From the NCBI GenBank assembly GCA_030390025.1, contig CM059431.1:138510001-138574000 (forward strand): a stretch of 64,000 bases of DNA. The letters run 5' to 3'. The notes below the pieces were generated by a model. It did not search any database. It was not told the origin of the DNA and worked only from the letters and a program-made list of their open reading frames with translations. Below, piece after piece: positions 18,505-51,567 of this stretch. The number at the start of each line of letters is the position of its first letter. The first letter of the stretch is position 1. The position numbers and the translations under genes were made by a program. Source of the stretch: Squalus acanthias. Its lineage: Eukaryota.

Positions 18505-19700
<1,196 letters not shown>

Positions 19701-30821: not shown

Positions 30822-32235
30822 CGCTGGAGTTTAGAAGAATGAGAGGAGATCTCATTGAAACTTATAAAATTCTAACAGGGCTAGACAGACTGGATGCAGG
30901 AATGATGTTCCCGATGGCGGGTGAGTCCAGCACAAGAGGTCATAGTCTAAAGATAAGGGGTAAGCCATTTAGGACAGAGATGAGGAGGAATTTCTTCACC
31001 CAGAGAATGGTGAACCTGTGGAATTCTCTACCACAGAAGGCAGTTGAGGCCAATTCATTAAATATATTCAAGAAGGAGTTAGATATATGGGTCCCCAGCT
31101 GTTCACAATTTACATTAATGACCTGGATCAGGGAGTCGGATGCAGCATTTCCAAATTTGCAGACGACACTAAACTAGGAGGGGGGGTGGGCTCAGAGGAG
31201 GAGACCAGGAAGCTCCAGAGCGATTTGGACAGACTGGGTGATTGGGCGGATAAATGGCAGATGCACTATAATGTGGACAAGTGCGAAGTTATCCACCTTG
31301 GGTGCAGGAACGGGAGGGCAAATTATTATTTAAATGGCAATAAATTGGGAGAGGGGGAAGTACAGAGACACCTGGGTGTTCTTGTACACCAGTCACTGAA
31401 GGCGAGCATGCAGGTGCAACAGGCGGTCAAGAAGGCAAACGGTATGCTGGCCTTCATAGCAAAAGGGTTGGAATACAGGAACAGGGATACCTTGCTGCAG
31501 CTGTACAGGGCACTGGTGAGACCACACCTCGAGTACTGTGTACAGTTTTGGTCGCCTCATCTGAGGAAAGATGTTCTTGCCATGGAGGGGGTGCAGCGGC
31601 GATTCACCAGGCTGATACCAGGAATGGCGGGATTGACCTATGAGGAGAGACTATGTAGTTTAGGGATGTACACACTGGAGTTTAGAAGATTGAGAGGGGA
31701 CCTCATAGAAGTGTATAAAATTCTGACAGGTCCAGACAGACTAGATGCAGAAGGAATGTTTCCCTTGGCGGGTGAGAACAGAACTAGAGGACATAATTTA
31801 AGGATAAGGGCTAAACCATTTAGGACAGAAATGAGGGGGAATTTCTTCACTCAGAGGGTGGTGAACCTGTGGAACTCATTGCCACAGAGGGCAGTGCACG
31901 CCAGCTCATTAAGTATATTTAAGAGGGAATTAGATATATTTCTACAGGCAAAAGGGGTTAAGGGTTACGGAGAGAAGGCGGGGACGGGATACTGAATTGG
32001 AGGATCAGCCATGATCTCATTAAATGGCGGAGCAGGCTCGAAGGGCCGGATGGCCTACTCCTGCTCCTATCTTCTATGTATCTATGTATTTCTTAAGGCT
32101 AAAGGTATCAAGGGATATGGAGACAAGGCAGGCACAGAGTACTGAGTTTGGATGATCAGCCATGATCTCATCGAATGGCGGAGCAGGCTCGAGGGGCCGA
32201 ATGGCCTACTCCTGCTCGTATCTTCTGTGTTTCTA
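30822..32235 (+). mobile_element. Short CR1 3' fragment inserted in ORF1, itself interrupted
   Basis: Flanked by TGTGCT direct repeats (30816-30821, 32236-32241). SLEFRRMRGDL...KELDI|FLKAKGIKGYG. Confidence 0.88.
31089..32086 (+). mobile_element. 5'-truncated CR1 with open RT C-terminus (innermost insertion)
   Basis: ORF 31087..31995 (FADDTKL), TCTATG tail, TAT flanks on both sides. Confidence 0.9.
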
Positions 32236-34419
32236 TGTGCTATGTGGGAAGTCAGGGACACTTTCAGTGTCCAGGGCGAACACATGTGCAGGAAGTGTCT
32301 CCAGCTGCAGCTACTCGAAATCCGCGTTTCGGAGCTGGAGCTGCGGCTGGAGTCACTGTGGAGCATCCGCGAAGCTGAGATCTTCGTGGATAGCACGTTT
32401 AACGAGGTGGTCACACCGCAGATAAAGAGTGCACAGGCAGACAGGGAATGGGTGACCGCCAGACAGAGTAAAAGAACTAGGAAGGTAGTGCAGGAGACCC
32501 CTAGGTCCATCCCCCTCTCCAACAGATTTTCCGTTTTGGATACTGCTGGGGGAGATGGTTTCTCAGGGGAATGCAGCAAGAGTCAAGTCCGTGGCACTAC
32601 GAGTGGCTCAGCTGCACAGGAGGGGAGGAAAAGAGTGGGAGAACAAGAGTGATAGGGGATTCTATCATAAGGGGAACAGATAGACATTTCTGTGGCCGCA
32701 GACGTGACTCCAGGATGGTATGTTGCCAGGGTCAAAGATGTCACTGAACGGCTGCAGGGCATTCTGAAGGGTGAGGGCGAACAGTTAGAGGTCGTGGTTC
32801 ACAATTGTACCAAAGACATAGGTAGAAAGAGGGATGAGGTCCTGCAACAAGAATTTAGGGAGCTAGGTAGCAGATTAAAAAGCAGGACCTCAAAGGTTAT
32901 AACCTCTGGATTACTCCCGGTGCCACGTGCTAGTGAGTATAGGAATAGGAGGATAGAGCAGATGAATGCGTGGCTAAAGAGTTGGTGCATGAGGGAGGGC
33001 TTTAGTTTCCTGGATCACTGGGTCTGCTTTTGGGGAAGGTGGGACCTGTACAAGTCGGACCCTGTACAAGTCGGACGGGTTGCACCTGAACCGGAACGGG
33101 ACCAACATCCTTGCGGGGAGGTTTGCTAGTGCTGCAGGCGGCGGGTTTAAACTAACTTGGCAGTGGGATGGGATACGGAGTGGAGCTATAGTAGGGGGTG
33201 ATAGAGGAAAAAAAACAACTCAGCCTGGAAGGTAGAGCAAATATGTAATGGCATAAGGGAGTATGGCAAGGCTGGATGGCATTTATTTTAATGCAAGGAG
33301 TCTTGTGAGTAAGGCAGATGAATTGTAGGTGTTGAACACATGGGAGTATGATATTGTTGCTATCACAGAGACATGGTTGTGGGAGGGGCAGGACTGGCAG
33401 CTCAATATTCCGGGGTATATAATCTTCAGGCGAGACAGAGGGGGGTGTAAAAGAGGAGGGGGTGTCGCAATATTAATCAAGGTGTCAATTACTGCTGTAA
33501 GGAGGGATGATGTCTTAGCAGGTTCCTCTAATGAGGCCATATGGGTAGAACTTAAAAACAAAATGCGGGAAGCACTTTGCTGGAAGTGTACTATAGGCCC
33601 CCAAACAGTCAGGGGGAGATAGAGGAACAGATATGTAGGCAAATCTCAGAAGTGTAGAAATAATAGGGTAATAATAGTATTAACTGGGATAATCAGAGTG
33701 TGAAAGGCTTAGAGGGGGCGGAATTCTTAAAGTGCATCCAGGAGAGCTTTTTGAGCCAGCATGTAGAAAGTCCTACAAGAGAGGGGGTGGTACTGGACCT
33801 AATTCTAGGGAATGTAGCCGGGCAAGTGGTAGAAGTGTCAGTAGGAGAGCATTTTGGTGACAGTGACCATAATTCGGTGAGATTTAAGGTAGTCATGGAA
33901 AAGGATAAAGATGGACCGGAAATAAAGGTTCTAAATTGGGGGAAGGCCGATTTTATTATGATAAGGCAGGATCTGGCCAAAGTGGACTGGGATCAGCTAC
34001 TTGTAGGAAAATCCACATCAGAGCAGTGGGAGTCATTCAGAAAGGAAAGAGAGTACAGCGCCAACATGTTCCCGTAAAGGTCAAGGGTGGGACCAACAAG
34101 TCCAGGTCCCCCCTCAGCCTTCTCTGCTCTAAGGAAAACAACCCCAGCCTGTCCAGTCTCTTCTCATAGCTGAAGCGCTCCAGCCCAGGTAACATCCTGG
34201 TGAATGCACTCTCTCTAATGCAATCACATCTCTCCTATAGTGTGGTGACCAGAACTGCACACAGTATTCCATCTGTGGCCGAACTAGCGTTTTGTACAGC
34301 TCCATCATAACCTCCCTGCTCTTATATTCTATGATGCGGAGATGCCGGTGTTGGACTGGGGTGGACAAAATTGAGAGGTCGCACAACACCAGGTTATAGT
34401 CCAACAGTTTTATTTGAAA

Positions 34420-34457
34420 TCACAAGCTTTCGGAACTATCGCTCCTTCCTCAGGTGA
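34420..34457 (-). ncRNA. Minimal type I hammerhead ribozyme (pLTR copy 1)
   Basis: UCAC CUGAGGA A GGAGC GAUA GUUCC GAAA GCUU GUGA: stem I UCAC/GUGA, core CUGANGA/GAAA, palindromic stem III. Confidence 0.85.
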
Positions 34458-34791
34458 AGTAAATTGGATACAGAATCGTCAGAGCATATATAGATGGAAA
34501 AAAAAAGCATGTGTACTTTACAATTGCAGACCAATAAATTAAATCATCCTGACTATCTGCCGAGGTGTGATAAAGTTAATTAAGTCAGCCAGGAAGGTAC
34601 CACATCAAAAGACATAGCAAGATACAACTGAGACAATGAGGTGAAGTCGCAGGGGTTCTAACGTGTCAAAAGCTGCCGTCTGTATGTAAAACGAAAAGCT
34701 TTAAAAAAAAATTACTTTTTTACTGGGAAAATTTTTACTTTTTTACTGGGAATCACATCTGTGAACAAGCTAACGACGACTCGAGTCCGGA

Positions 34792-37470
34792 TCACGTCAT
34801 GTATCGTGACATAAACCCAAGATCCCGATTGAGACCGTCTTCATGAGTGCAGAACTTGGCTATCAGTTTCTGCTCGATGATTTTGCGTTGTCGTGTGTTT
34901 CTAAGGTTGCCTTGGAGAACGCTTACCCGCAGATCCGAGGCTGAATGTCCTTGACTGCTGAAGTGTTCCCCGACTGGGAGGTAACAATCCTGCCTGGCGA
35001 TTGTTGCGCGGTGCTCGTTCATACGTTGTCTCAGTGTCTGCATGGTCTCGCCGATGTACCATGCCGCGGTGCATTCTTTCCTGCAACGTATGAGGTAGAC
35101 AACGTTGGCCGAGTCACATGAGTATGTACCATGTACCTGGTGGGTAGTGTCCTCACGTGTGATGGTGGTATCTGTGTTGATGATCTGGCATGTCTTGCAG
35201 AGTTTGCCATGGCAGGGTTGTGTGGTGTCGTGGTCGCTGTTATCCTGAAAGCTGGGTAATTTGCTGCGAACGATGGTACTTCTGAGGTTAGGCGGCTGTT
35301 TGAAGGCAAGTAGTGGAGGCGTGGGGATGGCCTTAGCGAGGTGTTTGTCGTCATCGATGACATGTTGAAGGCTGCGAAGAACATGTCGTAGTTTCTCCGC
35401 TCCGGGGAAGTACTGGACGACGTAGGGTACCCTGTTGGTTGTGTCCCGTGTTTGCCTTCTGAGGAGGTCTATGCGATTTTTCGCTGTGGCCCGTCGGAAC
35501 TGTCGATCGATGAGTCGAGCGTCATATCCCGTTCTTACGAGGGCGTTTTTCAGCGTCCGTAGGTGTCCATCGCGTTCCTCCTCGTCTGAGCAGATCCTGT
35601 GTATTCGCAGGGCTTGTCCATAGGGGATGGCTTCTTTAACATGGTTAGGGTGGAAGCTGGAGAAGTGGAGCATCGTGAGGTTGTCCGTGGGCTTGCGGTA
35701 GAGTGAAGTGCTGAGGTGTCCGTCTTTGATGGAGATTCGTGTGTCCAGGAATGAGACCGATTCTGAGGAGTAGTCCATGGTGAGTTTGATGGTGGGATGG
35801 AACTTGTTTATGTTATCGTGTAGTCTTTTCAGTGATCCTTCGCCATGGGTCCAAAGGAAGAAAATGTCGTCGATGTATCTGGTGTACAGCGTTGGCTGGA
35901 GGTCCTGTGCAGCGAAGAAGTCTTGCTCGAACTTGTGCATGAAGATGTTGGCGTATTGGGGTGCGAATTTGGTCCCCATGGCTGTTCCGTGTGTTTGGGT
36001 AAAAAAATGGTTGTCGAAGGTGAAGACATTGTGGTCAAGGATGAAGCGGATGAGTTGTAGGATGGCGTCTGGAGATTGGCTGTTGTTGATGTTGAGTACT
36101 GAGGCTGTTGCAGCGATGCCGTCATCGTGGGGGATACTGGTGTAGAGTGCCGATACGTCCATCGTGGCAAGGAGTGTTCCTGGTTCAACTGGTCCGTGGG
36201 TGCTGAGTTTCTGTAAGAAGTCTGTAGTGTCGCGACAGAAGCTGGGGGTTCCCTGTACGATGGGTTTCAGAATGCCCTCGACGTATCCAGAGAGGTTCTC
36301 ACACAGGGTTCCATTGCCTGATACGATAGGACGTCCGGGTGTGTTGGCTTTGTGTATCTTTGGGAGGCAGTAGAAGTCTCCCACGCGGGGAGTACGTGGG
36401 ATGAGAGCGCGTAGGATGTTTTGAAGGTCTGGATCGAAGGTCTTGATCAGTCTATTGAGTTGGCGGGTGTGTTCTTTGGTCGGATCTGCGGGTAGCTGTC
36501 TGTAGTGTTCCTGGTTGTCCAGTTGTCGGTATGCTTCTTTACAATAGTCCGTTCTGTTCTGTATGACGATGGCTCCTCCTTTGTCCGCTGGTTTGATGAC
36601 AATGTTGCGGTTGGTCTTGAGAGCGTGGATGGCGTTGCGTTGTGCTCGGGTGACATTCTGGACTGTCTTGTGAGTGCGGCTGATGAATCTGGCGTTGATG
36701 CATTTCCTGACAGCTTGAGCATACATGTCAAGCTTGGGGCAGCGACCCTCCGGAGGGGTCCAGTTTGACTCTTTTTTCTTCGGTTGCTGCACTGCGAGTC
36801 CCTCTGTCTGCTGTTCTGGATCATTGATTGTCTCATTGGGTTTGTTGCTGACATCTTGGGATTTGTGGAAGTATTCCCGGAGCCTCATTCTCCTGATGAA
36901 TTCCTCCGTGTCTGCCGCGAGACCGATGGGGTCCATTTTGGTGGTTGGGCAGAACTTGAGCCCTAGGGCGAGAACTTCGATTTCGTCTGGTTGAAGGGTA
37001 TGGTCGGACAAGTTGACGATGGACTTCCCTGTGGTTGCAGCCGTGGTACCGGGGGAGGCTTGGTTGCTGCTGGTGGTGATGCCGAGTTTCTCAAGCTTCC
37101 TGTTCTTGATGCGCATGTAGGCAGCGTAGTTCCGTTGCCTCGTCTGTTTGGTGGTGTCTCGTAACTGGTCTGCTGTGTCCTGAGCACAGGCTGAGAGCAT
37201 GGACTCTATCTTGGTTTCGAGGTTGTGGCGTTTGCTGTAGAGCTGGTGTACGAGATGGTTGAGGAGTGTGCGAGAGGTACGACGGCAGAGTCTCTCAGCG
37301 TAGTCTGTGTTGTATGTCGACTTGAGTGGGTTCGTGATCTGTAGTCCTTTCGGGATCTTGTCTGCTTTCTTGCATCTCTGTAGATACTTGATGTCGGTGT
37401 CGATATGCGCGATCTTCTTGGCGATTCTCTCCACTTTGAGCCGGCAGTTTGTGGTGTCGATAGTGGTCAT
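34792..37470 (-). CDS. PLE polyprotein RT + GIY-YIG endonuclease, intact, 892 aa from first ATG
   Basis: IKPADKG, DVSALYTSIP, GTAMG, RYIDD, Cys linker PCHGKLCKTC, VVYLIRC..WYIGET, GLN. The track start at 37542 is a TTG. Confidence 0.96.
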   Translation of the reverse strand: MTTIDTTNCRLKVERIAKKIAHIDTDIKYLQRCKKADKIPKGLQITNPLKSTYNTDYAERLCRRTSRTLLNHLVHQLYSKRHNLETKIESMLSACAQDTADQLRDTTKQTRQRNYAAYMRIKNRKLEKLGITTSSNQASPGTTAATTGKSIVNLSDHTLQPDEIEVLALGLKFCPTTKMDPIGLAADTEEFIRRMRLREYFHKSQDVSNKPNETINDPEQQTEGLAVQQPKKKESNWTPPEGRCPKLDMYAQAVRKCINARFISRTHKTVQNVTRAQRNAIHALKTNRNIVIKPADKGGAIVIQNRTDYCKEAYRQLDNQEHYRQLPADPTKEHTRQLNRLIKTFDPDLQNILRALIPRTPRVGDFYCLPKIHKANTPGRPIVSGNGTLCENLSGYVEGILKPIVQGTPSFCRDTTDFLQKLSTHGPVEPGTLLATMDVSALYTSIPHDDGIAATASVLNINNSQSPDAILQLIRFILDHNVFTFDNHFFTQTHGTAMGTKFAPQYANIFMHKFEQDFFAAQDLQPTLYTRYIDDIFFLWTHGEGSLKRLHDNINKFHPTIKLTMDYSSESVSFLDTRISIKDGHLSTSLYRKPTDNLTMLHFSSFHPNHVKEAIPYGQALRIHRICSDEEERDGHLRTLKNALVRTGYDARLIDRQFRRATAKNRIDLLRRQTRDTTNRVPYVVQYFPGAEKLRHVLRSLQHVIDDDKHLAKAIPTPPLLAFKQPPNLRSTIVRSKLPSFQDNSDHDTTQPCHGKLCKTCQIINTDTTITREDTTHQVHGTYSCDSANVVYLIRCRKECTAAWYIGETMQTLRQRMNEHRATIARQDCYLPVGEHFSSQGHSASDLRVSVLQGNLRNTRQRKIIEQKLIAKFCTHEDGLNRDLGFMSRYMT

Positions 37471-37557
37471 GATGCGGAGATGCCGGTGTTGGACTGGGGT
37501 GGACAAAATTGAGAGGTCGCACAACACCAGGTTATAGTCCAACAGTTTTATTTGAAA

Positions 37558-37595
37558 TCACAAGCTTTCGGAGCTATCGCTCCTTCCTCAGGTGA
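37558..37595 (-). ncRNA. Minimal hammerhead ribozyme (pLTR copy 2)
   Basis: Same fold; stem II is fully Watson-Crick here (GGAGC/GCUCC). Confidence 0.87.
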
Positions 37596-37929
37596 AGTAA
37601 ATTGGATACAGAATCGTCAGAGCATATATAGATGGAAAAAAAAGCATGTGTACTTTACAATTGCAGACCAATAAATTAAATCATCCTGACTATCTGCCGA
37701 GGTGTGATAAAGTTAATTAAGTCAGCCAGGAAGGTACCACATCAAAAGACATAGCAAGATACAACTGAGACAATGAGGTGAAGTCGCAGGGGTTCTAACG
37801 TGTCAAAAGCTGCCGTCTGTATGTAAAACGAAAAGCTTTAAAAAAAAATTTACTTTTTTACTGGGAAAATTTTTACTTTTTTACTGGGAATCACATCTGT
37901 GAACAAGCTAACGACGACTCGAGTCCGGA

Positions 37930-40016
37930 TCACGTCATGTATCGTGACATAAACCCAAGATCCCGATTGAGACCGTCTTCATGAGTGCAGAACTTGGCTA
38001 TCAGTTTCTGCTCGATGATTTTGCGTTGTCGTGTGTTTCTAAGGTTGCCTTGGAGAACGCTTACCCGCAGATCCGAGGCTGAATGTCCTTGACTGCTGAA
38101 GTGTTCCCCGACTGGGAGGGAACAATCCTGCCTGGCGATTGTTGCGCGGTGCTCGTTCATACGTTGTCTCAGTGTCTGCATGGTCTCGCCGATGTACCAT
38201 GCCGCGGTGCATTCTTTCCTGCAACGTATGAGGTAGACAACGTTGGCCGAGTCACATGAGTATGTACCATGTACCTGGTGGGTAGTGTCCTCACGTGTGA
38301 TGGTGGTATCTGTGTTGATGATCTGGCATGTCTTGCAGAGTTTGCCATGGCAGGGTTGTGTGGTGTCGTGGTCGCTGTTATCCTGAAAGCTGGGTAATTT
38401 GCTGCGAACGATGGTACTTCTGAGGTTAGGCGGCTGTTTGAAGGCAAGTAGTGGAGGCGTGGGGATGGCCTTAGCGAGGTGTTTGTCGTCATCGATGACA
38501 TGTTGAAGGCTGCGAAGAACATGTCGTAGTTTCTCCGCTCCGGGGAAGTACTGGACGACGTAGGGTACCCTGTTGGTTGTGTCCCGTGTTTGCCTTCTGA
38601 GGAGGTCTATGCGATTTTTCGCTGTGGCCCGTCGGAACTGTCGATCGATGAGTCGAGCGTCATATCCCGTTCTTACGAGGGCGTTTTTCAGCGTCCGTAG
38701 GTGTCCATCGCGTTCCTCCTCGTCTGAGCAGATCCTGTGTATTCGCAGGGCTTGTCCATAGGGGATGGCTTCTTTAACATGGTTAGGGTGGAAGCTGGAG
38801 AAGTGGAGCATCGTGAGGTTGTCCGTGGGCTTGCGGTAGAGTGAAGTGCTGAGGTGTCCGTCTTTGATGGAGATTCGTGTGTCCAGGAATGAGACCGATT
38901 CTGAGGAGTAGTCCATGGTGAGTTTGATGGTGGGATGGAACTTGTTTATGTTATCGTGTAGTCTTTTCAGTGATCCTTCGCCATGGGTCCAAAGGAAGAA
39001 AATGTCGTCGATGTATCTGGTGTACAGCGTTGGCTGGAGGTCCTGTGCAGCGAAGAAGTCTTGCTCGAACTTGTGCATGAAGATGTTGGCGTATTGGGGT
39101 GCGAATTTGGTCCCCATGGCTGTTCCGTGTGTTTGGGTAAAAAAATGGTTGTCGAAGGTGAAGACATTGTGGTCAAGGATGAAGCGGATGAGTTGTAGGA
39201 TGGCGTCTGGAGATTGGCTGTTGTTGATGTTGAGTACTGAGGCTGTTGCAGCGATGCCGTCATCGTGGGGGATACTGGTGTAGAGTGCCGATACGTCCAT
39301 CGTGGCAAGGAGTGTTCCTGGTTCAACTGGTCCGTGGGTGCTGAGTTTCTGTAAGAAGTCTGTAGTGTCGCGACAGAAGCTGGGGGTTCCCTGTACGATG
39401 GGTTTCAGAATGCCCTCGACGTATCCAGAGAGGTTCTCACACAGGGTTCCATTGCCTGATACGATAGGACGTCCGGGTGTGTTGGCTTTGTGTATCTTTG
39501 GGAGGCAGTAGAAGTCTCCCACGCGGGGAGTACGTGGGATGAGAGCGCGTAGGATGTTTTGAAGGTCTGGATCGAAGGTCTTGATCAGTCTATTGAGTTG
39601 GCGGGTGTGTTCTTTGGTCGGATCTGCGGGTAGCTGTCTGTAGTGTTCCTGGTTGTCCAGTTGTCGGTATGCTTCTTTACAATAGTCCGTTCTGTTCTGT
39701 ATGACGATGGCTCCTCCTTTGTCCGCTGGTTTGATGACAATGTTGCGGTTGGTCTTGAGAGCGTGGATGGCGTTGCGTTGTGCTCGGGTGACATTCTGGA
39801 CTGTCTTGTGAGTGCGGCTGATGAATCTGGCGTTGATGCATTTCCTGACAGCTTGAGCATACATGTCAAGCTTGGGGCAGCGACCCTCCGGAGGGGTCCA
39901 GTTTGACTCTTTTTTCTTCGGTTGCTGCACTGCGAGTCCCTCTGTCTGCTGTTCTGGATCATTGATTGTCTCATTGGGTTTGTTGCTGACATCTTGGGAT
40001 TTGTGGAAGTATTCCC
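37930..40016 (-). pseudogene. 5'-truncated PLE ORF copy ending at the inversion junction
   Basis: Matches the other copies from ..EYFHKSQD.. to the stop; N-terminus missing. Confidence 0.93.
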
Positions 40017-40298
40017 AGTAAATTTTCCCAGTAAAAAAGTAAATTTTTTTTTTAAAGCTTTTCGTTTTACATACATACGGCAGCTTTTGACACGTTAGAA
40101 CCCCTGCGACTTCACCTCATTGTCTCAGTTGTATCTTGCTATGTCTTTTGATGTGGTACCTTCCTGGCTGACTTAATTAACTTTATCACACCTCGGCAGA
40201 TAGTCAGGATGATTTAATTTATTGGTCTGCAATTGTAAAGTACACATGCTTTTTTTTTCCATCTATATATGCTCTGACGATTCTGTATCCAATTTACT

Positions 40299-40336
40299 TC
40301 ACCTGAGGAAGGAGCGATAGTTCCGAAAGCTTGTGA
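40299..40336 (+). ncRNA. Minimal hammerhead ribozyme (pLTR copy 3)
   Basis: TCACCTGAGGAAGGAGCGATAGTTCCGAAAGCTTGTGA. Confidence 0.85.
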
Positions 40337-40423
40337 TTTCAAATAAAACTGTTGGACTATAACCTGGTGTTGTGCGACCTCTCAATTTTGTCCACCCCAG
40401 TCCAACACCGGCATCTCCGCATC

Positions 40424-43102
40424 ATGACCACTATCGACACCACAAACTGCCGGCTCAAAGTGGAGAGAATCGCCAAGAAGATCGCGCATATCGACACCGA
40501 CATCAAGTATCTACAGAGATGCAAGAAAGCAGACAAGATCCCGAAAGGACTACAGATCACGAACCCACTCAAGTCGACATACAACACAGACTACGCTGAG
40601 AGACTCTGCCGTCGTACCTCTCGCACACTCCTCAACCATCTTGTACACCAGCTCTACAGCAAACGCCACAACCTCGAAACCAAGATAGAGTCCATGCTCT
40701 CAGCCTGTGCTCAGGACACAGCAGACCAGTTACGAGACACCACCAAACAGACGAGGCAACGGAACTACGCTGCCTACATGCGCATCAAGAACAGGAAGCT
40801 TGAGAAACTCGGCATCACCACCAGCAGCAACCAAGCCTCCCCCGGTACCACGGCTGCAACCACAGGGAAGTCCATCGTCAACTTGTCCGACCATACCCTT
40901 CAACCAGACGAAATCGAAGTTCTCGCCCTAGGGCTCAAGTTCTGCCCAACCACCAAAATGGACCCCATCGGTCTCGCGGCAGACACGGAGGAATTCATCA
41001 GGAGAATGAGGCTCCGGGAATACTTCCACAAATCCCAAGATGTCAGCAACAAACCCAATGAGACAATCAATGATCCAGAACAGCAGACAGAGGGACTCGC
41101 AGTGCAGCAACCGAAGAAAAAAGAGTCAAACTGGACCCCTCCGGAGGGTCGCTGCCCCAAGCTTGACATGTATGCTCAAGCTGTCAGGAAATGCATCAAC
41201 GCCAGATTCATCAGCCGCACTCACAAGACAGTCCAGAATGTCACCCGAGCACAACGCAACGCCATCCACGCTCTCAAGACCAACCGCAACATTGTCATCA
41301 AACCAGCGGACAAAGGAGGAGCCATCGTCATACAGAACAGAACGGACTATTGTAAAGAAGCATACCGACAACTGGACAACCAGGAACACTACAGACAGCT
41401 ACCCGCAGATCCGACCAAAGAACACACCCGCCAACTCAATAGACTGATCAAGACCTTCGATCCAGACCTTCAAAACATCCTACGCGCTCTCATCCCACGT
41501 ACTCCCCGCGTGGGAGACTTCTACTGCCTCCCAAAGATACACAAAGCCAACACACCCGGACGTCCTATCGTATCAGGCAATGGAACCCTGTGTGAGAACC
41601 TCTCTGGATACGTCGAGGGCATTCTGAAACCCATCGTACAGGGAACCCCCAGCTTCTGTCGCGACACTACAGACTTCTTACAGAAACTCAGCACCCACGG
41701 ACCAGTTGAACCAGGAACACTCCTTGCCACGATGGACGTATCGGCACTCTACACCAGTATCCCCCACGATGACGGCATCGCTGCAACAGCCTCAGTACTC
41801 AACATCAACAACAGCCAATCTCCAGACGCCATCCTACAACTCATCCGCTTCATCCTTGACCACAATGTCTTCACCTTCGACAACCATTTTTTTACCCAAA
41901 CACACGGAACAGCCATGGGGACCAAATTCGCACCCCAATACGCCAACATCTTCATGCACAAGTTCGAGCAAGACTTCTTCGCTGCACAGGACCTCCAGCC
42001 AACGCTGTACACCAGATACATCGACGACATTTTCTTCCTTTGGACCCATGGCGAAGGATCACTGAAAAGACTACACGATAACATAAACAAGTTCCATCCC
42101 ACCATCAAACTCACCATGGACTACTCCTCAGAATCGGTCTCATTCCTGGACACACGAATCTCCATCAAAGACGGACACCTCAGCACTTCACTCTACCGCA
42201 AGCCCACGGACAACCTCACGATGCTCCACTTCTCCAGCTTCCACCCTAACCATGTTAAAGAAGCCATCCCCTATGGACAAGCCCTGCGAATACACAGGAT
42301 CTGCTCAGACGAGGAGGAACGCGATGGACACCTACGGACGCTGAAAAACGCCCTCGTAAGAACGGGATATGACGCTCGACTCATCGATCGACAGTTCCGA
42401 CGGGCCACAGCGAAAAATCGCATAGACCTCCTCAGAAGGCAAACACGGGACACAACCAACAGGGTACCCTACGTCGTCCAGTACTTCCCCGGAGCGGAGA
42501 AACTACGACATGTTCTTCGCAGCCTTCAACATGTCATCGATGACGACAAACACCTCGCTAAGGCCATCCCCACGCCTCCACTACTTGCCTTCAAACAGCC
42601 GCCTAACCTCAGAAGTACCATCGTTCGCAGCAAATTACCCAGCTTTCAGGATAACAGCGACCACGACACCACACAACCCTGCCATGGCAAACTCTGCAAG
42701 ACATGCCAGATCATCAACACAGATACCACCATCACACGTGAGGACACTACCCACCAGGTACATGGTACATACTCATGTGACTCGGCCAACGTTGTCTACC
42801 TCATACGTTGCAGGAAAGAATGCACCGCGGCATGGTACATCGGCGAGACCATGCAGACACTGAGACAACGTATGAACGAGCACCGCGCAACAATCGCCAG
42901 GCAGGATTGTTCCCTCCCAGTCGGGGAACACTTCAGCAGTCAAGGACATTCAGCCTCGGATCTGCGGGTAAGCGTTCTCCAAGGCAACCTTAGAAACACA
43001 CGACAACGCAAAATCATCGAGCAGAAACTGATAGCCAAGTTCTGCACTCATGAAGACGGTCTCAATCGGGATCTTGGGTTTATGTCACGATACATGACGT
43101 GA
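40424..43102 (+). CDS. PLE polyprotein RT + GIY-YIG, intact, 892 aa
   Basis: Same motifs as 34792-37470; ATG at 40424. Confidence 0.96.
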   Translation: MTTIDTTNCRLKVERIAKKIAHIDTDIKYLQRCKKADKIPKGLQITNPLKSTYNTDYAERLCRRTSRTLLNHLVHQLYSKRHNLETKIESMLSACAQDTADQLRDTTKQTRQRNYAAYMRIKNRKLEKLGITTSSNQASPGTTAATTGKSIVNLSDHTLQPDEIEVLALGLKFCPTTKMDPIGLAADTEEFIRRMRLREYFHKSQDVSNKPNETINDPEQQTEGLAVQQPKKKESNWTPPEGRCPKLDMYAQAVRKCINARFISRTHKTVQNVTRAQRNAIHALKTNRNIVIKPADKGGAIVIQNRTDYCKEAYRQLDNQEHYRQLPADPTKEHTRQLNRLIKTFDPDLQNILRALIPRTPRVGDFYCLPKIHKANTPGRPIVSGNGTLCENLSGYVEGILKPIVQGTPSFCRDTTDFLQKLSTHGPVEPGTLLATMDVSALYTSIPHDDGIAATASVLNINNSQSPDAILQLIRFILDHNVFTFDNHFFTQTHGTAMGTKFAPQYANIFMHKFEQDFFAAQDLQPTLYTRYIDDIFFLWTHGEGSLKRLHDNINKFHPTIKLTMDYSSESVSFLDTRISIKDGHLSTSLYRKPTDNLTMLHFSSFHPNHVKEAIPYGQALRIHRICSDEEERDGHLRTLKNALVRTGYDARLIDRQFRRATAKNRIDLLRRQTRDTTNRVPYVVQYFPGAEKLRHVLRSLQHVIDDDKHLAKAIPTPPLLAFKQPPNLRSTIVRSKLPSFQDNSDHDTTQPCHGKLCKTCQIINTDTTITREDTTHQVHGTYSCDSANVVYLIRCRKECTAAWYIGETMQTLRQRMNEHRATIARQDCSLPVGEHFSSQGHSASDLRVSVLQGNLRNTRQRKIIEQKLIAKFCTHEDGLNRDLGFMSRYMT

Positions 43103-43436
43103 TCCGGACTCGAGTCGTCGTTAGCTTGTTCACAGATGTGATTCCCAGTAAAAAAGTAAAAATTTTCCCAGTAAAAAAGTAAATTTTTTTTTAAAGCTTT
43201 TCGTTTTACATACATACGGCAGCTTTTGACACGTTAGAACCCCTGCGACTTCACCTCATTGTCTCAGTTGTATCTTGCTATGTCTTTTGATGTGGTACCT
43301 TCCTGGCTGACTTAATTAACTTTATCACACCTCGGCAGATAGTCAGGATGATTTAATTTATTGGTCTGCAATTGTAAAGTACACATGCTTTTTTTTCCAT
43401 CTATATATGCTCTGACGATTCTGTATCCAATTTACT

Positions 43437-43474
43437 TCACCTGAGGAAGGAGCGATAGTTCCGAAAGCTTGTGA
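43437..43474 (+). ncRNA. Minimal hammerhead ribozyme (pLTR copy 4)
   Basis: Identical to 40299-40336. Confidence 0.85.
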
Positions 43475-43561
43475 TTTCAAATAAAACTGTTGGACTATAA
43501 CCTGGTGTTGTGCGACCTCTCAATTTTGTCCACCCCAGTCCAACACCGGCATCTCCGCATC

Positions 43562-46240
43562 ATGACCACTATCGACACCACAAACTGCCGGCTCAAAGTG
43601 GAGAGAATCGCCAAGAAGATCGCGCATATCGACACCGACATCAAGTATCTACAGAGATGCAAGAAAGCAGACAAGATCCCGAAAGGACTACAGATCACGA
43701 ACCCACTCAAGTCGACATACAACACAGACTACGCTGAGAGACTCTGCCGTCGTACCTCTCGCACACTCCTCAACCATCTCGTACACCAGCTCTACAGCAA
43801 ACGCCACAACCTCGAAACCAAGATAGAGTCCATGCTCTCAGCCTGTGCTCAGGACACAGCAGACCAGTTACGAGACACCACCAAACAGACGAGGCAACGG
43901 AACTACGCTGCCTACATGCGCATCAAGAACAGGAAGCTTGAGAAACTCGGCATCACCACCAGCAGCAACCAAGCCTCCCCCGGTACCACGGCTGCAACCA
44001 CAGGGAAGTCCATCGTCAACTTGTCCGACCATACCCTTCAACCAGACGAAATCGAAGTTCTCGCCCTAGGGCTCAAGTTCTGCCCAACCACCAAAATGGA
44101 CCCCATCGGTCTCGCGGCAGACACGGAGGAATTCATCAGGAGAATGAGGCTCCGGGAATACTTCCACAAATCCCAAGATGTCAGCAACAAACCCAATGAG
44201 ACAATCAATGATCCAGAACAGCAGACAGAGGGACTCGCAGTGCAGCAACCGAAGAAAAAAGAGTCAAACTGGACCCCTCCGGAGGGTCGCTGCCCCAAGC
44301 TTGACATGTATGCTCAAGCTGTCAGGAAATGCATCAACGCCAGATTCATCAGCCGCACTCACAAGACAGTCCAGAATGTCACCCGAGCACAACGCAACGC
44401 CATCCACGCTCTCAAGACCAACCGCAACATTGTCATCAAACCAGCGGACAAAGGAGGAGCCATCGTCATACAGAACAGAACGGACTATTGTAAAGAAGCA
44501 TACCGACAACTGGACAACCAGGAACACTACAGACAGCTACCCGCAGATCCGACCAAAGAACACACCCGCCAACTCAATAGACTGATCAAGACCTTCGATC
44601 CAGACCTTCAAAACATCCTACGCGCTCTCATCCCACGTACTCCCCGCGTGGGAGACTTCTACTGCCTCCCAAAGATACACAAAGCCAACACACCCGGACG
44701 TCCTATCGTATCAGGCAATGGAACCCTGTGTGAGAACCTCTCTGGATACGTCGAGGGCATTCTGAAACCCATCGTACAGGGAACCCCCAGCTTCTGTCGC
44801 GACACTACAGACTTCTTACAGAAACTCAGCACCCACGGACCAGTTGAACCAGGAACACTCCTTGCCACGATGGACGTATCGGCACTCTACACCAGTATCC
44901 CCCACGATGACGGCATCGCTGCAACAGCCTCAGTACTCAACATCAACAACAGCCAATCTCCAGACGCCATCCTACAACTCATCCGCTTCATCCTTGACCA
45001 CAATGTCTTCACCTTCGACAACCATTTTTTTACCCAAACACACGGAACAGCCATGGGGACCAAATTCGCACCCCAATACGCCAACATCTTCATGCACAAG
45101 TTCGAGCAAGACTTCTTCGCTGCACAGGACCTCCAGCCAACGCTGTACACCAGATACATCGACGACATTTTCTTCCTTTGGACCCATGGCGAAGGATCAC
45201 TGAAAAGACTACACGATAACATAAACAAGTTCCATCCCACCATCAAACTCACCATGGACTACTCCTCAGAATCGGTCTCATTCCTGGACACACGAATCTC
45301 CATCAAAGACGGACACCTCAGCACTTCACTCTACCGCAAGCCCACGGACAACCTCACGATGCTCCACTTCTCCAGCTTCCACCCTAACCATGTTAAAGAA
45401 GCCATCCCCTATGGACAAGCCCTGCGAATACACAGGATCTGCTCAGACGAGGAGGAACGCGATGGACACCTACGGACGCTGAAAAACGCCCTCGTAAGAA
45501 CGGGATATGACGCTCGACTCATCGATCGACAGTTCCGACGGGCCACAGCGAAAAATCGCATAGACCTCCTCAGAAGGCAAACACGGGACACAACCAACAG
45601 GGTACCCTACGTCGTCCAGTACTTCCCCGGAGCGGAGAAACTACGACATGTTCTTCGCAGCCTTCAACATGTCATCGATGACGACAAACACCTCGCTAAG
45701 GCCATCCCCACGCCTCCACTACTTGCCTTCAAACAGCCGCCTAACCTCAGAAGTACCATCGTTCGCAGCAAATTACCCAGCTTTCAGGATAACAGCGACC
45801 ACGACACCACACAACCCTGCCATGGCAAACTCTGCAAGACATGCCAGATCATCAACACAGATACCACCATCACACGTGAGGACACTACTCACCAGGTACA
45901 TGGTACATACTCATGTGACTCGGCCAACGTTGTCTACCTCATACGTTGCAGGAAAGAATGCACCGCGGCATGGTACATCGGCGAGACCATGCAGACACTG
46001 AGACAACGTATGAACGAGCACCGCGCAACAATCGCCAGGCAGGATTGTTCCCTCCCAGTCGGGGAACACTTCAGCAGTCAAGGACATTCAGCCTCGGATC
46101 TGCGGGTAAGCGTTCTCCAAGGCAACCTTAGAAACACACGACAACGCAAAATCATCGAGCAGAAACTGATAGCCAAGTTCTGCACTCATGAAGACGGTCT
46201 CAATCGGGATCTTGGGTTTATGTCACGATACATGACGTGA
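43562..46240 (+). CDS. PLE polyprotein RT + GIY-YIG, intact, 892 aa
   Basis: Protein appears identical to the 40424 copy; offset 3138 bp. Confidence 0.96.
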   Translation: MTTIDTTNCRLKVERIAKKIAHIDTDIKYLQRCKKADKIPKGLQITNPLKSTYNTDYAERLCRRTSRTLLNHLVHQLYSKRHNLETKIESMLSACAQDTADQLRDTTKQTRQRNYAAYMRIKNRKLEKLGITTSSNQASPGTTAATTGKSIVNLSDHTLQPDEIEVLALGLKFCPTTKMDPIGLAADTEEFIRRMRLREYFHKSQDVSNKPNETINDPEQQTEGLAVQQPKKKESNWTPPEGRCPKLDMYAQAVRKCINARFISRTHKTVQNVTRAQRNAIHALKTNRNIVIKPADKGGAIVIQNRTDYCKEAYRQLDNQEHYRQLPADPTKEHTRQLNRLIKTFDPDLQNILRALIPRTPRVGDFYCLPKIHKANTPGRPIVSGNGTLCENLSGYVEGILKPIVQGTPSFCRDTTDFLQKLSTHGPVEPGTLLATMDVSALYTSIPHDDGIAATASVLNINNSQSPDAILQLIRFILDHNVFTFDNHFFTQTHGTAMGTKFAPQYANIFMHKFEQDFFAAQDLQPTLYTRYIDDIFFLWTHGEGSLKRLHDNINKFHPTIKLTMDYSSESVSFLDTRISIKDGHLSTSLYRKPTDNLTMLHFSSFHPNHVKEAIPYGQALRIHRICSDEEERDGHLRTLKNALVRTGYDARLIDRQFRRATAKNRIDLLRRQTRDTTNRVPYVVQYFPGAEKLRHVLRSLQHVIDDDKHLAKAIPTPPLLAFKQPPNLRSTIVRSKLPSFQDNSDHDTTQPCHGKLCKTCQIINTDTTITREDTTHQVHGTYSCDSANVVYLIRCRKECTAAWYIGETMQTLRQRMNEHRATIARQDCSLPVGEHFSSQGHSASDLRVSVLQGNLRNTRQRKIIEQKLIAKFCTHEDGLNRDLGFMSRYMT

Positions 46241-46576
46241 TCCGGACTCGAGTCGTCGTTAGCTTGTTCACAGATGTGATTCCCAGTAAAAAAGTAAAAA
46301 TTTTCCCAGTAAAAAAGTAAATTTTTTTTTTAAAGCTTTTCGTTTTACATACATACGGCAGCTTTTGACACGTTAGAACCCCTGCGACTTCACCTCATTG
46401 TCTCAGTTGTATCTTGCTATGTCTTTTGATGTGGTACCTTCCTGGCTGACTTAATTAACTTTATCACACCTCGGCAGATAGTCAGGATGATTTAATTTAT
46501 TGGTCTGCAATTGTAAAGTACACATGCTTTTTTTTTCCATCTATATATGCTCTGACGATTCTGTATCCAATTTACT

Positions 46577-46614
46577 TCACCTGAGGAAGGAGCGATAGTT
46601 CCGAAAGCTTGTGA
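46577..46614 (+). ncRNA. Minimal hammerhead ribozyme (pLTR copy 5)
   Basis: Identical to 40299-40336; lies ~45 nt from the right end of the insertion. Confidence 0.85.
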
Positions 46615-49600
46615 TTTCAAATAAAACTGTTGGACTATAACCTGGTGTTGTGCGACCTCTTATATTCTATGCCTAAGCTAATGAAGGCAAGTATCCCATA
46701 TGCCTTTTTAACTACCTTATCTACCTGTCCTGCTGCCTTCAGGGATCTATGTACATGCACACCAAGGTCCCACTGATCCTCTGTCCTTCCTAGGGTCCTA
46801 CCATTCATTGTGCATTCCCTTGCCTTGTTAGTCCTCCCAAAATGCAACACCTCACACTTTTCAGGGTTAAATTCCATTTGTCACTGTTCTGCCCATCTGA
46901 CCAACCCGTCTATCTAGTCCTGTAGCCTGAGGATTCCCTCCTCACTATTTACCACTCCACCAATTTTCATGTCATCTGCGAACTTACTGATCATACCTCC
47001 TACATTCATATCTAAATCATTAATGTGCACGACAAACAGCAAAGGACCCAGCACCGATCCCTGCGGTACACCACTGGACACAGGCTTCCAGTCACAAAAA
47101 CAACCTTCGACCATCACCCTCTGCCTCCTGCCACTAAGCCAATTTTGGATCCAATGTGCCAAATTGCCCTGGATCCCATGGGCTCTTACCTTCTTAACTA
47201 GTCTCCCATGCGGGACTTGTCAAAAAGCCTTACTGAAGTCCATGTAGACTACATCAACTGCACTACCCTCATCCACACACCTAGTCACCTCCTCGAAAAA
47301 TTCAATCAAATTGTTTAGACATGATCTCCCCCTGACAAAGCTAATGCTGACTGTCCTTGATTAATCCTTGCTTCTCCAAGTGGAGACTAATTCTGTCCCT
47401 CAGAATTTTTTCCAATAATTTCCCTACCACTGATGTTAGGCACACTGGCCTGCAATTCCCTGATTTATCCCTACTACCCTTCTTGAATAATGGTACTAAG
47501 TTAGCTGTCCTCCAGTTTTCAGGCACCTCCCCTGTGGCCAGAGAGGAGCTGAAAATTTGTGTCAGAGCCCCTGAAATCTCCTCCATTGCCTCACACAGCA
47601 GCCTGGGATACATCTCGTCTGGGCCTGGGGATTTATCCACTTTTAAGCCCGCTAAAACCACTAATACCTCCTCCCTCTCGATGCGGATTTGTTCAAGTAT
47701 ATCACAATCCCCCTGCCTGATTTCTATGCTGACATCGTCCTTCTCCACAGTGAACACAGATGCAAAATATTCATTTAAAACGGCTCTACACACAGATTGC
47801 CACTTTGGTCCCTAATGGGCCCTACTCTTTTCCAAGTTATCCTCTTGCCCTTAATATACTTATAAAACACCTTGGGATTTTCCTTTATTTTGCCCGCCAG
47901 TATTTTTTCATGCCCCCTCTTTGCTCTCCTAATTTCTTTTTTAAGTAACCCCCTGCACTTTCTATACTCTTCTAGGGCTTCCACTGTTTTTAGTCCTTTG
48001 TACCTGCCAAAAGCCTCCATTTTTTTCCTAATCCATTCTTGTATATCCCTTGACATCCAGGGTTCCCTGGACTTGTTGGTCCCACCTTTGACCTTTACGG
48101 GAACATGTTGTCACTGTACTCTCTCTGTTTCCTTTCTGAATGACTCCCACTGCTCTGATGTGGATTTTCCTACAAGTAGCTGATCCCAGTCCACTTTAGC
48201 CAGATCCTGCCTTATTTAGAACCTTTATTTCCGGTCCATCTTTGTCCTTTTCCATGACTACTTTAAATCTCACCAAATTATGGTCACTGTCAGCAAAATG
48301 CTCTCCTACTGACATTTCTACCACTTGCCTAGAATTAGGTCCAGTACCACCCCCTCTCTGGTAGGACAGTCTACATGCTGGCTCAAAAAGCTCTCCTGGA
48401 TGCACTTTAAGAATTCCGCCCCTTCTCAGCCTTTCACACTCTGACTATCCCAGTTAATATTGGGGAAGTTGAAATCCCCTACTATTATTACCCTATTATT
48501 TCTACACTTCTGAGATTTGCCTACATATCTGTTCCTCTATCTCCCCCTGACTGTTTGGGGGCCTATAGTACACTCCCAGCAAAGTGCTTGCCCCCTTTTT
48601 GTTTTCAAGTTCTACCCATATGGCCTCATTCGAGGAACCTGCTAAGACATCATCCCTCCTTACAGCAGTAATTGACTCCTTGATTAATATTGCGACACCC
48701 CCTCCTCTTTTACACCCCCCTCTGTCTCGCCTGAAGATTATATACCCCGGAAGATTGAGCTGCCAGTCATGCCCCTCCCTCAACCATGTCTCTGTGATAG
48801 CAACAATATCATACTCCCATGTGTTCAACACCTTCAATTCATCTGCCTTACTCGTAAGACTCCTTGCATTAAAATAAATGCCATCCAGCCTTGCCATACT
48901 CCCTTGCGCCGTTACATATTTGCTGTGCCTTCCAGACTGACTTGGTTTTTTCCTCTATATTTGGCTTTGCATCACCCCCTACTATAGCTCCACTCCGTAT
49001 CCCATCCCCCTGCCAAGTTAGTTTAAACCGCCCTCAACAGCACTAGCAAACCTCCCCACAAGGATGTTGGTCCCGTTCCGGTTCAGGTGCAACCTGTCTG
49101 ACATGTACAGGTCCCACCTTCCCCAGAAACAGATCCAGTGATCCAGGAAACTAAAGCCCTCCCTCCTGCACCAACTCTTTAGCCACGCATTCATCTGCTC
49201 TTTCCTCCTATTCCTATACTCACTAGCACTTGGCACCGGGAGTAATCCAGAGATTACAACCTTTGAGGTCCCGCTTTTTAATCTGCTACCTAACTCCCTA
49301 AATTCTTGTTGCAGGACCTCATCCCTCTTTCTACCTATGTCGTTGGTACTAATGTGAACCACGACCTCTGACTTTTCACCCTCCCCTTTCAGAATGCCCT
49401 GCAGCCGTTCAGTGACATCCTTGACCCTGGCACCAGGGAGGCAACATACCATCCTGGAGTCACGTCTGCGGCTGCAGAAACACCTGTCTGCACCCCTCAC
49501 TATTGAGACTCCTACCACTATTGCCCTTCCACTCTTACTCCTCCCCACTTCTGCAGCTCAGGATAAAGACTGTAAAATCCCTACTTGTTCACAAGGATCC

Positions 49601-49782
49601 ATTTTAGATTCTCCAGTCCTTAGGGAATTTCTAACCGATCCTTTTATTATTGGTCATATTTGTGTTGAATCTGCTTCTCTCTGGTTTAACTGAACTGTTT
49701 GTTTCCCTTCATTACGGAGCAACAACACAATCCGTGACTGTTCTACAATTCGCCCAACAGTTAGAGACAAATAAACAGTTAC

Positions 49783-51520
49783 CTCAACACCCGGCATTTG
49801 TGCAGTACGGGTCCCAGCCGCTGGAGTCCCTCACACTGAATGGAGCAGAAGTCCAGATCGAGGTGTTTTACTGTATCACAGAGTCCAATGACATGAGACA
49901 GGACCGCACAGTCAATCGGGGTCAATGCCATGTCACTAAATGTGAGTGAGTTCACAGATCCCACTGTGGCCCGAGCCAGTGCTTTATTCTGAGACTCAAA
50001 CAGGTAGTGCAATGTGTTCAGGAGGTTCCTTTTACCAGTTTCACTCTCTGTGTCTCCAATCTGTCCCTCAACCTTCTCCTTCACCCAGTCAATCACTCGG
50101 CAGGTGGTTTGATGAAGAAATGGACCCAGAAACTCCTCCAGGGGCCGAGCTGACTGTGGAGAGGAGAGACCAGCAACAAAACGGAGAAATATCTCAAATC
50201 GCCCATCTTCCTCGCTGTGGGCTTCTCTGAGGAGTTTCAGGATGTCCCCGGGATCTGGAGTCAGGAATTGTGCGAGTGCGGCTACAAACTCTTGGATGGT
50301 GAGGTGCGGGAATGTGTACACCACGCTCTGGGCAGAATCATCCCTCTCCAAAAGTTCCATCATGAACCCAGACAGGAACTGGGAAGGTTGCAGATTGTAC
50401 TTGATCAAATCTCCATTTCTAAACACAATCTTCTTCTCGGAGACTCCTGTGAAGGCCATCTCACCAAGCTTCAGTAACACATCACGGGGGCTTTCAATCT
50501 CTCGGCCATGGTTTTTCAGAATGTTGTAGATATAGTAGGAATATAGTTGGGTGATGGTCTTGGGAACTCGCTGCTGATTCCTGTCTCTTTGTGTAAAGAA
50601 GGGACCCAGTGACAGACCGAGGATGAAGCAGTAGGAAGGGTTGAAGCTCATAGTGTACAGGATCTCGTTCTCCTCCACGTGTTTGAAAACAGCTGCTGCC
50701 ACCGTCTGATCTTCAAAAAACTTGTTGAAATATTCCTTCCGTTCTTCACCAACAAATCCCAGGATTTCAGCCCAGACACTGATCTCCGCCTTTTCCAATA
50801 AATGTAATGCAGTGGGGCGGCTGGTCACTAGCACTGAACATCCTGGGAGCAGCTTGTGCTGTATTAAACTGTACACAATGTCAGACACTTCACACCAGTC
50901 TTCAGGATCAGTGCACATGTGCTGAGGTTCTGTATTTCTCTGATTGTCAGCAAAATCGATACTGTCCTTGAATTCATCCAAACCATCGAATATAAACAGC
51001 AATCCCTCTGGGTTCTTCCAGAGCTCTCCCAGAATATTCCCAAAGTAAGGATACAGATCCAGTATCAGATTCCTCAGGTTTATTCTACAGTTAATAGCGT
51101 TCAAATCCCGGAATTTAAAGCTGAAAACAAATTGAAAATGTGGGAATATTTTCCCAGTGGCCCAGTCATGAACAATCTTTTGTACCATTGTTGTTTTTCC
51201 AATCCCCGGGACTCCGCTCACTGCACCTGAACTCCCACAATTGGATTTTCTCCGGGAAAAACTGCTCTGGAACAATTGATCAGTTCGGATTTTTTCCAGT
51301 TCTCTCCGGAGATGTTTCTCTCTCCACTCTTCATGGTCTCGGCCTCTTGCCAGCAGTTCATGTTCTACAAGTGTCCGATCTCGAACAGTAGAAATGACCG
51401 TTAGCTCAGCGTATCGATCAACCAGCTGGAAAATCTTAACCTTCTCCTTTATTAGGATAGTGTTCACTCTCAGTGTTTCAGTTTGTACCCGCAGTGTTTC
51501 CTTGTGTTTCTGTTGAACAT
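49783..51520 (-). CDS. NLR NACHT exon (1738 nt)
   Basis: (D)VQQKHKETLR..., Walker A GVPGIGKT, Walker B LLFIFDGLDE, VLVTSRP, winged-helix FPHLTIQEF. TTGAAG acceptor, GTAACT donor. Open throughout. Confidence 0.96.
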
Positions 51521-51567
51521 CTTCAATTAGAACAGACAGAAAGTGGTTTCAATGTTAGTTGCTAACC

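Follow-up and report, generated by a model that had tools for sequence, protein, structure and literature searches.

A 64,000-nucleotide stretch of the Squalus acanthias genome (contig CM059431.1, positions 138,510,001 to 138,574,000, forward strand), referred to here at its full length as the window, contains a 12,323-bp composite that is built from one 3138-bp unit of a Penelope-like element (PLE) and lies between two copies of a 15-bp target-site duplication (TSD). The composite very probably arose when a PLE that bears an endonuclease integrated once into a decayed long interspersed element (LINE) of CR1-like type, with both target strands priming reverse transcription. The insertion is very young and represents an unusually large and clean copy of the standard PLE layout. 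An earlier reading of the letters alone (the original prediction) had proposed a 12.3-kb insertion with three intact open reading frames (ORFs), and the composite does hold three open ORFs of 892 aa together with a fourth that is 5'-truncated.

Positions 40424-43561 (3138 bp), beginning at the ORF ATG, served as the unit reference, and the arms of the composite were mapped by blastn of this unit against the window. The map reproduced the two outward-pointing tandem arrays of the 3138-bp unit that had been predicted: a left arm of 1.8 units on the minus strand and a right arm of 2.1 units on the plus strand, with lengths of 5.7 kb and 6.6 kb, each above 1.8 units. The sense 3' ends of both arms face outward, and their 5' ends come together at the centre. 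When the arms are compared in the mirror register, complementarity extends to 5537 of 6166 positions, against approximately 25% in neighbouring registers. Both arms are head-to-tail arrays in which the first unit is 5'-truncated, giving pseudo-long terminal repeats (pseudo-LTRs), and the inverted 5'-truncated copy adjoins the upstream pseudo-LTR, the TSD enclosing the whole composite. The arms overlap across approximately 5.3 kb of the same sequence; in addition, the right arm holds approximately 1 kb at the centre that is absent from the left arm, and the left arm holds a 41-nt tail that is absent from the right. The window contains two copies of the 15-mer CTCTTATATTCTATG and no more, one at 34319-34333 and the other at 46657-46671 (0 expected, 100 shuffles), which bears out the claim of one 15-bp TSD at both ends. 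Anatomy, TSD and empty paralog, like the two end zones, the family regularities and the allele pattern described below, were read directly. The features of the locus are as follows.

34319-34333, no strand: left copy of the TSD; its last 3 nt (ATG) are common to the element end.
34334-37470 (blastn match from 34333), minus strand: outer full unit of the left arm, unit 1-3138, whose sense 3' end, the long tail end (T), forms the left border; A at 2489 and G at 2792.
34792-37470, minus strand: open ORF of 892 aa, predicted to encode a reverse transcriptase (RT) along with a GIY-YIG domain at the C terminus; residue 830 is Tyr.
37471-40016, minus strand: inner unit of the left arm, 5'-truncated (unit 593-3138) together with its ORF; C at 2489, G at 2792, and C at 3036.
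40011-40019, no strand: centre joint of the arms, a 3-nt filler or a 6-nt overlap.
40020-40423, plus strand: innermost partial unit of the right arm, unit 2737-3138 (blastn), which is the upstream pseudo-LTR.
40424-43561, plus strand: full unit of the right arm, with an open 892-aa ORF at 40424-43102; C at 2489, T at 2792, and a private T at unit 219.
43562-46660, plus strand: outer unit of the right arm, unit 1-3097, with an open 892-aa ORF at 43562-46240; private T at unit 2328; short end (S).
46657-46671, no strand: right copy of the TSD; its first 4 nt (CTCT) are common to the right-arm end.
46581-46610 (plus), 34424-34453 (minus), 37562-37591 (minus), 40303-40332 (plus), and 43441-43470 (plus): five copies of the putative hammerhead core (CUGAGGA ... 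GAAAGCUU), read by eye.
46672-49557, minus strand: upstream part of the likely CR1-like host LINE, with RVT_1 at 46917-47219, an AP endonuclease at 48505-48954, and a GDSL-type ORF1 at 49021-49557.

The host reading frame resumes in 34129-34333, across the insertion. Over the rebuilt empty site it is open for 137 aa and contains the motif given in the original prediction, so that the claimed continuity of the CR1 frame holds. The domain content of this host fits a decayed CR1-like LINE, the GDSL-type ORF1 being presumably linked with CR1-like elements. A search for the flanks disclosed, 9.2 Mb away on the same contig, positions 147716255-147717270 (C7) matching the left flank over 1000 bp at 95% and, directly adjoining, positions 147717271-147718260 (C7) matching the right flank over 1000 bp at 97%. 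The paralogous locus (L028) contains one copy of the 15-mer, with identities of 116/120 and 119/120 to the two flanks, and as judged from this alignment it serves as an empty site that is paralogous rather than allelic. The match to L028 also spans the junction of two different repeats at approximately 34106 of the window, which marks it as an old segmental duplicate and not merely one more copy of the LINE. In two other organisms, loose read ends at 34333 resembled the right flank of the window; they probably belong to further copies of the same LINE.

Both outer ends are legible at single-base resolution. The left arm extends through unit 3138 into the first two letters (AT) of the following ATG and has 3 nt (ATG) in common with the target, while the right arm ends at unit 3093-3097 and has 4 nt (CTCT) in common with the target. 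The left end is thus 41-45 nt longer than the right and forms a tail at one end only, in agreement with the original prediction, which placed one end at the ORF ATG and the other approximately 45 nt earlier, with 3-4 nt of target overlap. Moving inward from each TSD copy, the strand with the free 3' end runs on as the antisense of the ORF, with the 3-4 nt overlap at the transition. This geometry would be expected if nicks 15 bp apart gave 5' overhangs and each 3' end primed cDNA on sense RNA. At the centre, unit 593 is joined to unit 2716/2737, and the joint is not palindromic. It can be read either as a 3-nt filler, AGT, at 40017-40019 or as a 6-nt overlap, ATTCCC, in which the right arm begins at unit approximately 2716 and carries a 10-nt slippage deletion. 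Among the 40 scored of 851 candidates, this joint was found at the window locus only, which argues that the composite was not copied whole from a master.

Several traits of the unit relate it to known PLEs. The ORF matches RVT_1 with 35.1 bits against a Pfam cut-off of 29.6, and it contains the DKG motif (as KPADKGG) that is named as a PLE reverse-transcriptase motif in PMC8557442 (of this source, as of PMC3846280, PMC4209133, and bioRxiv 10.64898/2026.07.22.740005 below, excerpts are meant). Among 7999 scored candidates, 669 relatives appeared at E ≤ 0.001, the best named ones being uncharacterised shark proteins with 83-92% identity. The GIY-YIG assignment is marginal when the last 153 aa are searched in isolation (PF01541, E = 2e-4, 22.0 bits against a cut-off of 22.6); the C-terminal region also aligns through VVYL...YIG(E/Q)T...R...N.HR with a 39%-identical relative that has a precomputed PF01541 assignment. 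By these sequence traits, the element is classed as an endonuclease-positive (EN+) PLE of the C-terminal GIY-YIG type.

The unit likely contains a hammerhead ribozyme as well, although an Rfam hammerhead search gave no match at E ≤ 1 over 15 kb nor at E ≤ 10 over 131 nt. The putative core, read by eye only at unit 3018-3047, comprises a 4-bp helix I, CUGAGGA, one unpaired A, a 5-bp helix II, GAAA, and the palindromic AGCU, traits that are listed for the minimal hammerheads of PLEs (excerpt of PMC4209133). The copy at 37562-37591 (minus strand) shows one change, by which a G.U pair in helix II becomes G-C (unit 3036 T>C, also present at L008 and L018). The outer ends of the composite lie approximately 92 nt (left) and 50 nt (right) 3' of the hand-read cut, which follows unit 3047. 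A prediction of RNA fold over the start zone, 43440-43680, was no better than shuffles (z = -0.33). Read contigs of two other organisms (runs X9 and X10) with at least 97% identity cover 34354-34500, containing the ribozyme and the start zone, and the ORF end, and hardly cover the 3' untranslated part at 34502-34797, a hint at cross-species conservation of the start zone.

The original prediction had suggested surveying other copies for the same two-ended layout. A search of the genome (3.7 Gb) with the unit returned 3234 candidates, of which 29 were scored, and the survey set consisted of 20 loci, representing 19 distinct insertions, with one extra locus (C9) and the window; it covered 6-kb loci and small pieces from the ends. 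The best 29 of the 3234 candidates are 99-100% identical to the unit. Among the 20 fetched loci, every ORF that could be read to its end was open at 892 aa (19/19), so the family is young, and full units of different loci differ on average by 2.0 substitutions per kb (250 pairs); both values support recent activity of the family, which the original prediction took to be probably active now. The 19 insertions comprise 10 two-armed, five single-armed with both ends seen, and four unresolved. Together with C9 and the window, 12 two-armed insertions could be read at both ends, and 11 of these display an 11-15-bp TSD around the whole composite, L014 having none. A 12-13-bp TSD surrounds four of the five single-armed insertions.

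The outer ends of the family fall in two zones, a short one at unit 3097-3109 (about 3102) and a long one at 3135-3149 (about 3139, approximately 37 nt longer). One short and one long end are combined in 11 of the 12 two-armed insertions, the remaining one having two short ends; this pairing of unlike ends is supported by a permutation test (p = 0.0097) and a binomial test (p = 0.003). The element ends overlap the target by approximately 2 nt on average. At the 12 centres, the arms meet with an overlap of 1-5 nt in eight and a filler of 1-6 nt in four. Arrays of at least 2.5 units exist in the genome (C1494) and are a possible source of multimeric transcripts.

Other regularities of the family were also noted. 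A 5-nt filler at L003 is a candidate micro-arm in a single-armed insertion; no micro-arm was seen at single-armed L011, L013, L020, and L009. The same spot of the same host repeat families was hit by independent insertions in either orientation (L010/L012; L011/L015; L009/L013/window 34300-34333), and several TSDs end in strings resembling ATAG(A/T). Recurrent sites and TSD ends suggest a sequence preference of the PLE endonuclease. An older (88-95%), tiny two-armed Penelope remnant at L018:630-785 lies 0.7 kb from a young insertion, and ends of neighbouring young copies (L022:1-50 and L017:1-81) lie 113 nt and 1.4 kb from other insertions, which together point to local clustering.

From these data we infer an order of events, the use of two RNAs as templates, and a joining through pairing of cDNA ends. 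The element endonuclease would nick the target strands 15 bp apart to give 5' overhangs, and each free 3' end, aided by a chance pairing of 3-4 nt, would prime reverse transcription on element RNA. One start would fall in the short zone (unit ~3097-3109) and the other approximately 37-41 nt further 3' (unit ~3135-3145), leaving the one-sided tail. Both cDNAs would then extend past one unit, which implies that the templates were longer than one unit or that the enzyme moved between RNAs. The 3' ends of the cDNAs would meet mid-way and join by pairing of a few nucleotides, after which each would template the other strand, and repair would fill the 15-nt overhangs to yield the TSD. Three parts of the original prediction gain support here: a single event, from the TSD around the whole composite, the paralogous empty site, and the like TSD around 11 of 12 two-armed insertions of the family; priming by both target strands, from antisense cDNA at both TSD copies with 3-4 nt overlap, the arm-specific sequence, and the behaviour of an Anolis PLE in vitro (PMC11167929); and central joining of two cDNAs, from overlaps or short fillers at 12 of 12 centres.

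Comparison of the unit copies provides information on the templates. The five copies in the window differ at five substitution sites and at three indel columns in two homopolymer runs, in agreement with the few differences (DCYLP versus DCSLP, poly-T) that had been noted previously. Specifically, C or A at unit 2489 yields Ser or Tyr at residue 830 and hence DCSLP or DCYLP, and the differences in homopolymer length may be sequencing noise. In copies elsewhere, unit 2489 is A in 19 of 31 and unit 2792 is G in 24 of 38; the two positions are linked family alleles with A-G and C-T as the main haplotypes (L001-L020). Because the copies differ at polymorphic family sites, their differences are partly pre-existing family alleles and not only new changes. 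The rarer haplotype C-G, observed at L011 and in the inner left unit of the window, could be an evolutionary intermediate or a recombinant.

In the left arm, the outer unit has the haplotype A-G and the inner one C-G, and the right arm is C-T throughout; at unit 2792, G is present in both left-arm units and T in all three right-arm units. This difference in family alleles suggests that the arms derive from different template sequences. The two left-arm units differ from each other at unit 2489 and unit 3036, where the inner unit has the C found in 6 of 45 copies elsewhere, and they were thus not copied from one monomer, unless converted later. At other loci, tandem units agree at unit 2489 in seven of seven cases. 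The right-arm units differ from one another only in homopolymer lengths and at two sites private to the window, unit 219 T (C in 21/21 elsewhere) and unit 2328 T (C in 29/29 elsewhere). That only these two are private indicates either that the insertion is very young or that they are copying errors. The mixed alleles could stem from template exchange between two RNAs, from a mixed source array, or from later gene conversion between the arms.

The original prediction named multimeric or circular RNA (rolling-circle-like) as the template, and the circular part is not supported. Under the rolling-circle explanation, which we judge improbable, unit-length RNAs cut by the ribozyme and ligated into circles would be copied repeatedly, still with two-strand priming, to give arms of more than one unit. 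The arm lengths of 1.8 and 2.1 units fit, the right arm is compatible in that its units differ only at the two private sites and the homopolymers, and the circular-RNA idea is in print for PLEs (excerpt of PMC4209133) and for retrozymes (excerpt of bioRxiv 10.64898/2026.07.22.740005). However, the left-arm units differ at 2489, where both alleles are common, and at 3036, the arms differ at 2792, the ends fall approximately 50 and 92 nt 3' of the predicted cut, and the genomic arrays of at least 2.5 units (C1494) could supply multimeric transcripts instead. In vitro, moreover, insertion persists when the ribozyme is mutated, and no read has its start or end at the cut site (PMC11167929). The allele differences between the arms (unit 2792, plus 2489 when the outer units are compared) could alternatively reflect two insertions, with a C-T type element arriving first and an A-G type element then inserting, oppositely oriented, precisely at the 5' border of the first; PLE endonucleases reportedly cleave sequence of their own element (PMC11167929), and the arms agree in the six other informative loci. 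A second insertion would be expected to leave its own 12-15-bp TSD, as in 4 of 5 single-armed and 11 of 12 two-armed cases, but the centre has only the 3-nt filler or 6-nt overlap, one 15-bp TSD encloses both arms, and the pairing of a short with a long end, typical of single composites, holds in the window. We regard two events as highly improbable.

Self-priming, in which one cDNA folded back and copied itself into the second arm (raised for rotifer Penelope in the excerpt of PMC3846280), would fit the head-to-head layout, and the centre at L015 is nearly symmetric (unit 3005 versus 3006). A copy cannot exceed its template, however, and each arm contains sequence absent from the other, approximately 1 kb extra in the right and the 41-nt tail in the left, so neither is a fold-back copy of the other; the centre joining unit 593 to 2716/2737 is no palindrome, and the arms differ at unit 2792 in every unit. 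The anatomy of the locus contradicts this explanation, to which we give a very low probability. Long near-identical inverted repeats are hard to assemble (excerpts of PMC8557442 and PMC3846280), which raises the question of a fold-back artefact of the assembly; to this we assign a negligible probability, given a clean TSD with an empty paralog, a window with an N count of 0, arms that are not identical, and 10 further loci, on different contigs, that show this layout with TSDs of their own.

A single integration primed from both target strands remains the preferred explanation, and several observations weigh against it. The arms agree in allele in 6 of 6 other informative two-armed loci and differ in the window, which makes this locus atypical and gives two events a small remaining chance. 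What the alleles indicate depends on single positions, unit 2792 for the contrast between arms and unit positions 2489 and 3036 for that inside the left arm, and gene conversion between the arms after insertion could have moved these alleles. There is no allelic empty site, and no second-allele contig was found among 40 scored candidates per flank. Read contigs over 32800-35000 (runs X1, X3, X9, and X10) are only 60-81 nt long and come from thousands of repeat copies, so that they are not locus-specific, and the survey was limited to the best-scoring, full-length copies (29 scored of 3234). Finally, PAc, the Poseidon-type PLE of Anolis carolinensis, shows no start-site difference between strands in vitro (PMC11167929), a result that does not account for the one-short-one-long pairing seen here.

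In the excerpt of PMC3846280, a typical Penelope insertion has its ORF flanked by two direct pseudo-LTRs, with an inverted pseudo-LTR next to them, a TSD around all, and a 31-bp tail on one inverted repeat, and the general PLE scheme in that of PMC8557442 likewise shows pseudo-LTRs in direct and inverted orientation, a TSD, and, at one end, a tail of 30-40 bp. The locus resembles canonical EN+ PLEs as described there (Pen2a_Av of Adineta vaga, PMC3846280; PMC8557442) in its single RT plus GIY-YIG ORF, partial tandem pseudo-LTRs, inverted 5'-truncated copy, TSD around the whole, one-end tail of 30-40 bp, and, putatively, a hammerhead-type motif in the pseudo-LTR. It differs from those descriptions in scale, with arms of 5.7 and 6.6 kb and three open ORFs where the inverted part is usually a short pseudo-LTR, and in that its arms carry different family alleles; its 15-bp TSD also contrasts with the 8-10 bp of the excerpted rotifer examples.

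A mechanistic likeness, drawn by description, is that to PAc. Its purified protein cuts both target strands and extends them, beginning at either of two neighbouring internal sites of the RNA, to which the tail corresponds; ribozyme cleavage is not needed for insertion, and a multi-copy mRNA was proposed as the template (PMC11167929). In common with PAc, both target strands appear to be used at the locus, two start zones 30-40 nt apart define the tail, reverse transcription begins a few tens of nt 3' of the (here predicted) hammerhead cut, and the proposed template is multimeric RNA. Unlike PAc, in which starts lie 111-118 nt inside the ORF, the long zone here is at the ATG and the short one approximately 40 nt upstream. 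PAc in vitro also displays no strand bias of the start and no primer homology (PMC11167929), whereas here the ends differ in 11 of 12 composites and overlap the target by about 2 nt on average. The both-strand-priming mechanism is in its main lines the current published view, and the layout in the window is the standard one at larger scale.

LINE-1 twin priming, reportedly described by Ostertag and Kazazian in 2001, provides a further parallel. There, too, the second target strand primes on RNA and two cDNAs are joined internally by microhomology, leaving an inverted segment within one TSD. In contrast to the LINE-1 case, where the parts derive from different stretches of a single RNA that do not overlap and the second start lies at an arbitrary internal point, the arms in the window start in the same 3' zone, cover the same ~5.3 kb, and differ at unit 2792. 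Hammerhead retrozymes and circular RNAs, as presented in the excerpts of PMC4209133 and bioRxiv 10.64898/2026.07.22.740005, have a type-I style minimal hammerhead per unit (putative in the present element) and tandem genomic copies in common with it; retrozymes are non-coding and small in these sources, unlike the PLE unit, and the window locus gives no sign of a circular template. Ribozyme-made circles as templates for more-than-unit PLE copies were proposed in the Discussion of PMC4209133 (excerpt), and the layout, the one-sided tail, the TSD, and the circular-RNA idea are all already published.

The window as a whole is mostly retroelement sequence. A 13.2-kb minisatellite with a 26-bp unit (approximately 528 copies, 89% matches, G+C 0.61, strong strand skew) occupies 12-13204, and further LINE reverse-transcriptase ORF fragments (RVT_1) are located at 17650-22210, 31051-31995, and 52813-53760 (plus strand). 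Adjoining the host LINE, a 589-aa open stretch at 49782-51548 (minus strand) with NACHT, NOD2 winged-helix, and NLRC4 HD2 domains is, by its domain content, a predicted NLR-type immune-receptor exon or pseudogene.

How PLEs integrate is understood only in part: an in-vitro system first became available in 2024, and the later steps in it await verification. The locus described here belongs to a known kind of element. What it offers is a clean specimen, formed in nature, of the product of the proposed mechanism: the primer-template joint on each side, the joint at the centre, and the empty site are all readable base by base. It also argues against the older idea of self-priming, at least for this event. 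The thousands of candidate copies at ~0.2% divergence would allow start sites, TSD length, centre joints, and template mixing to be dissected statistically without experiment.

We also propose, tentatively, that each PLE integration is run by an asymmetric two-template complex, with one strand taking the short start and the other the long start, as in 11 of 12 insertions, and with templates that may be different RNAs, given the different family alleles of the arms in the window and the mixture within its left arm. A leading/trailing model, in which two enzymes travel on one RNA with the short-start cDNA ahead, was considered and rejected: the long-end arm is longer in 6 of 11 cases, revealing no bias, and the arms in the window differ in allele. 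If the asymmetric two-template complex is real, the thousands of near-pristine insertions would be evidence from in vivo that the PLE particle is dimeric and holds two RNAs, that the start sites are divided in a fixed manner, and that templates are exchanged, features of which none has been seen in the published in-vitro system.

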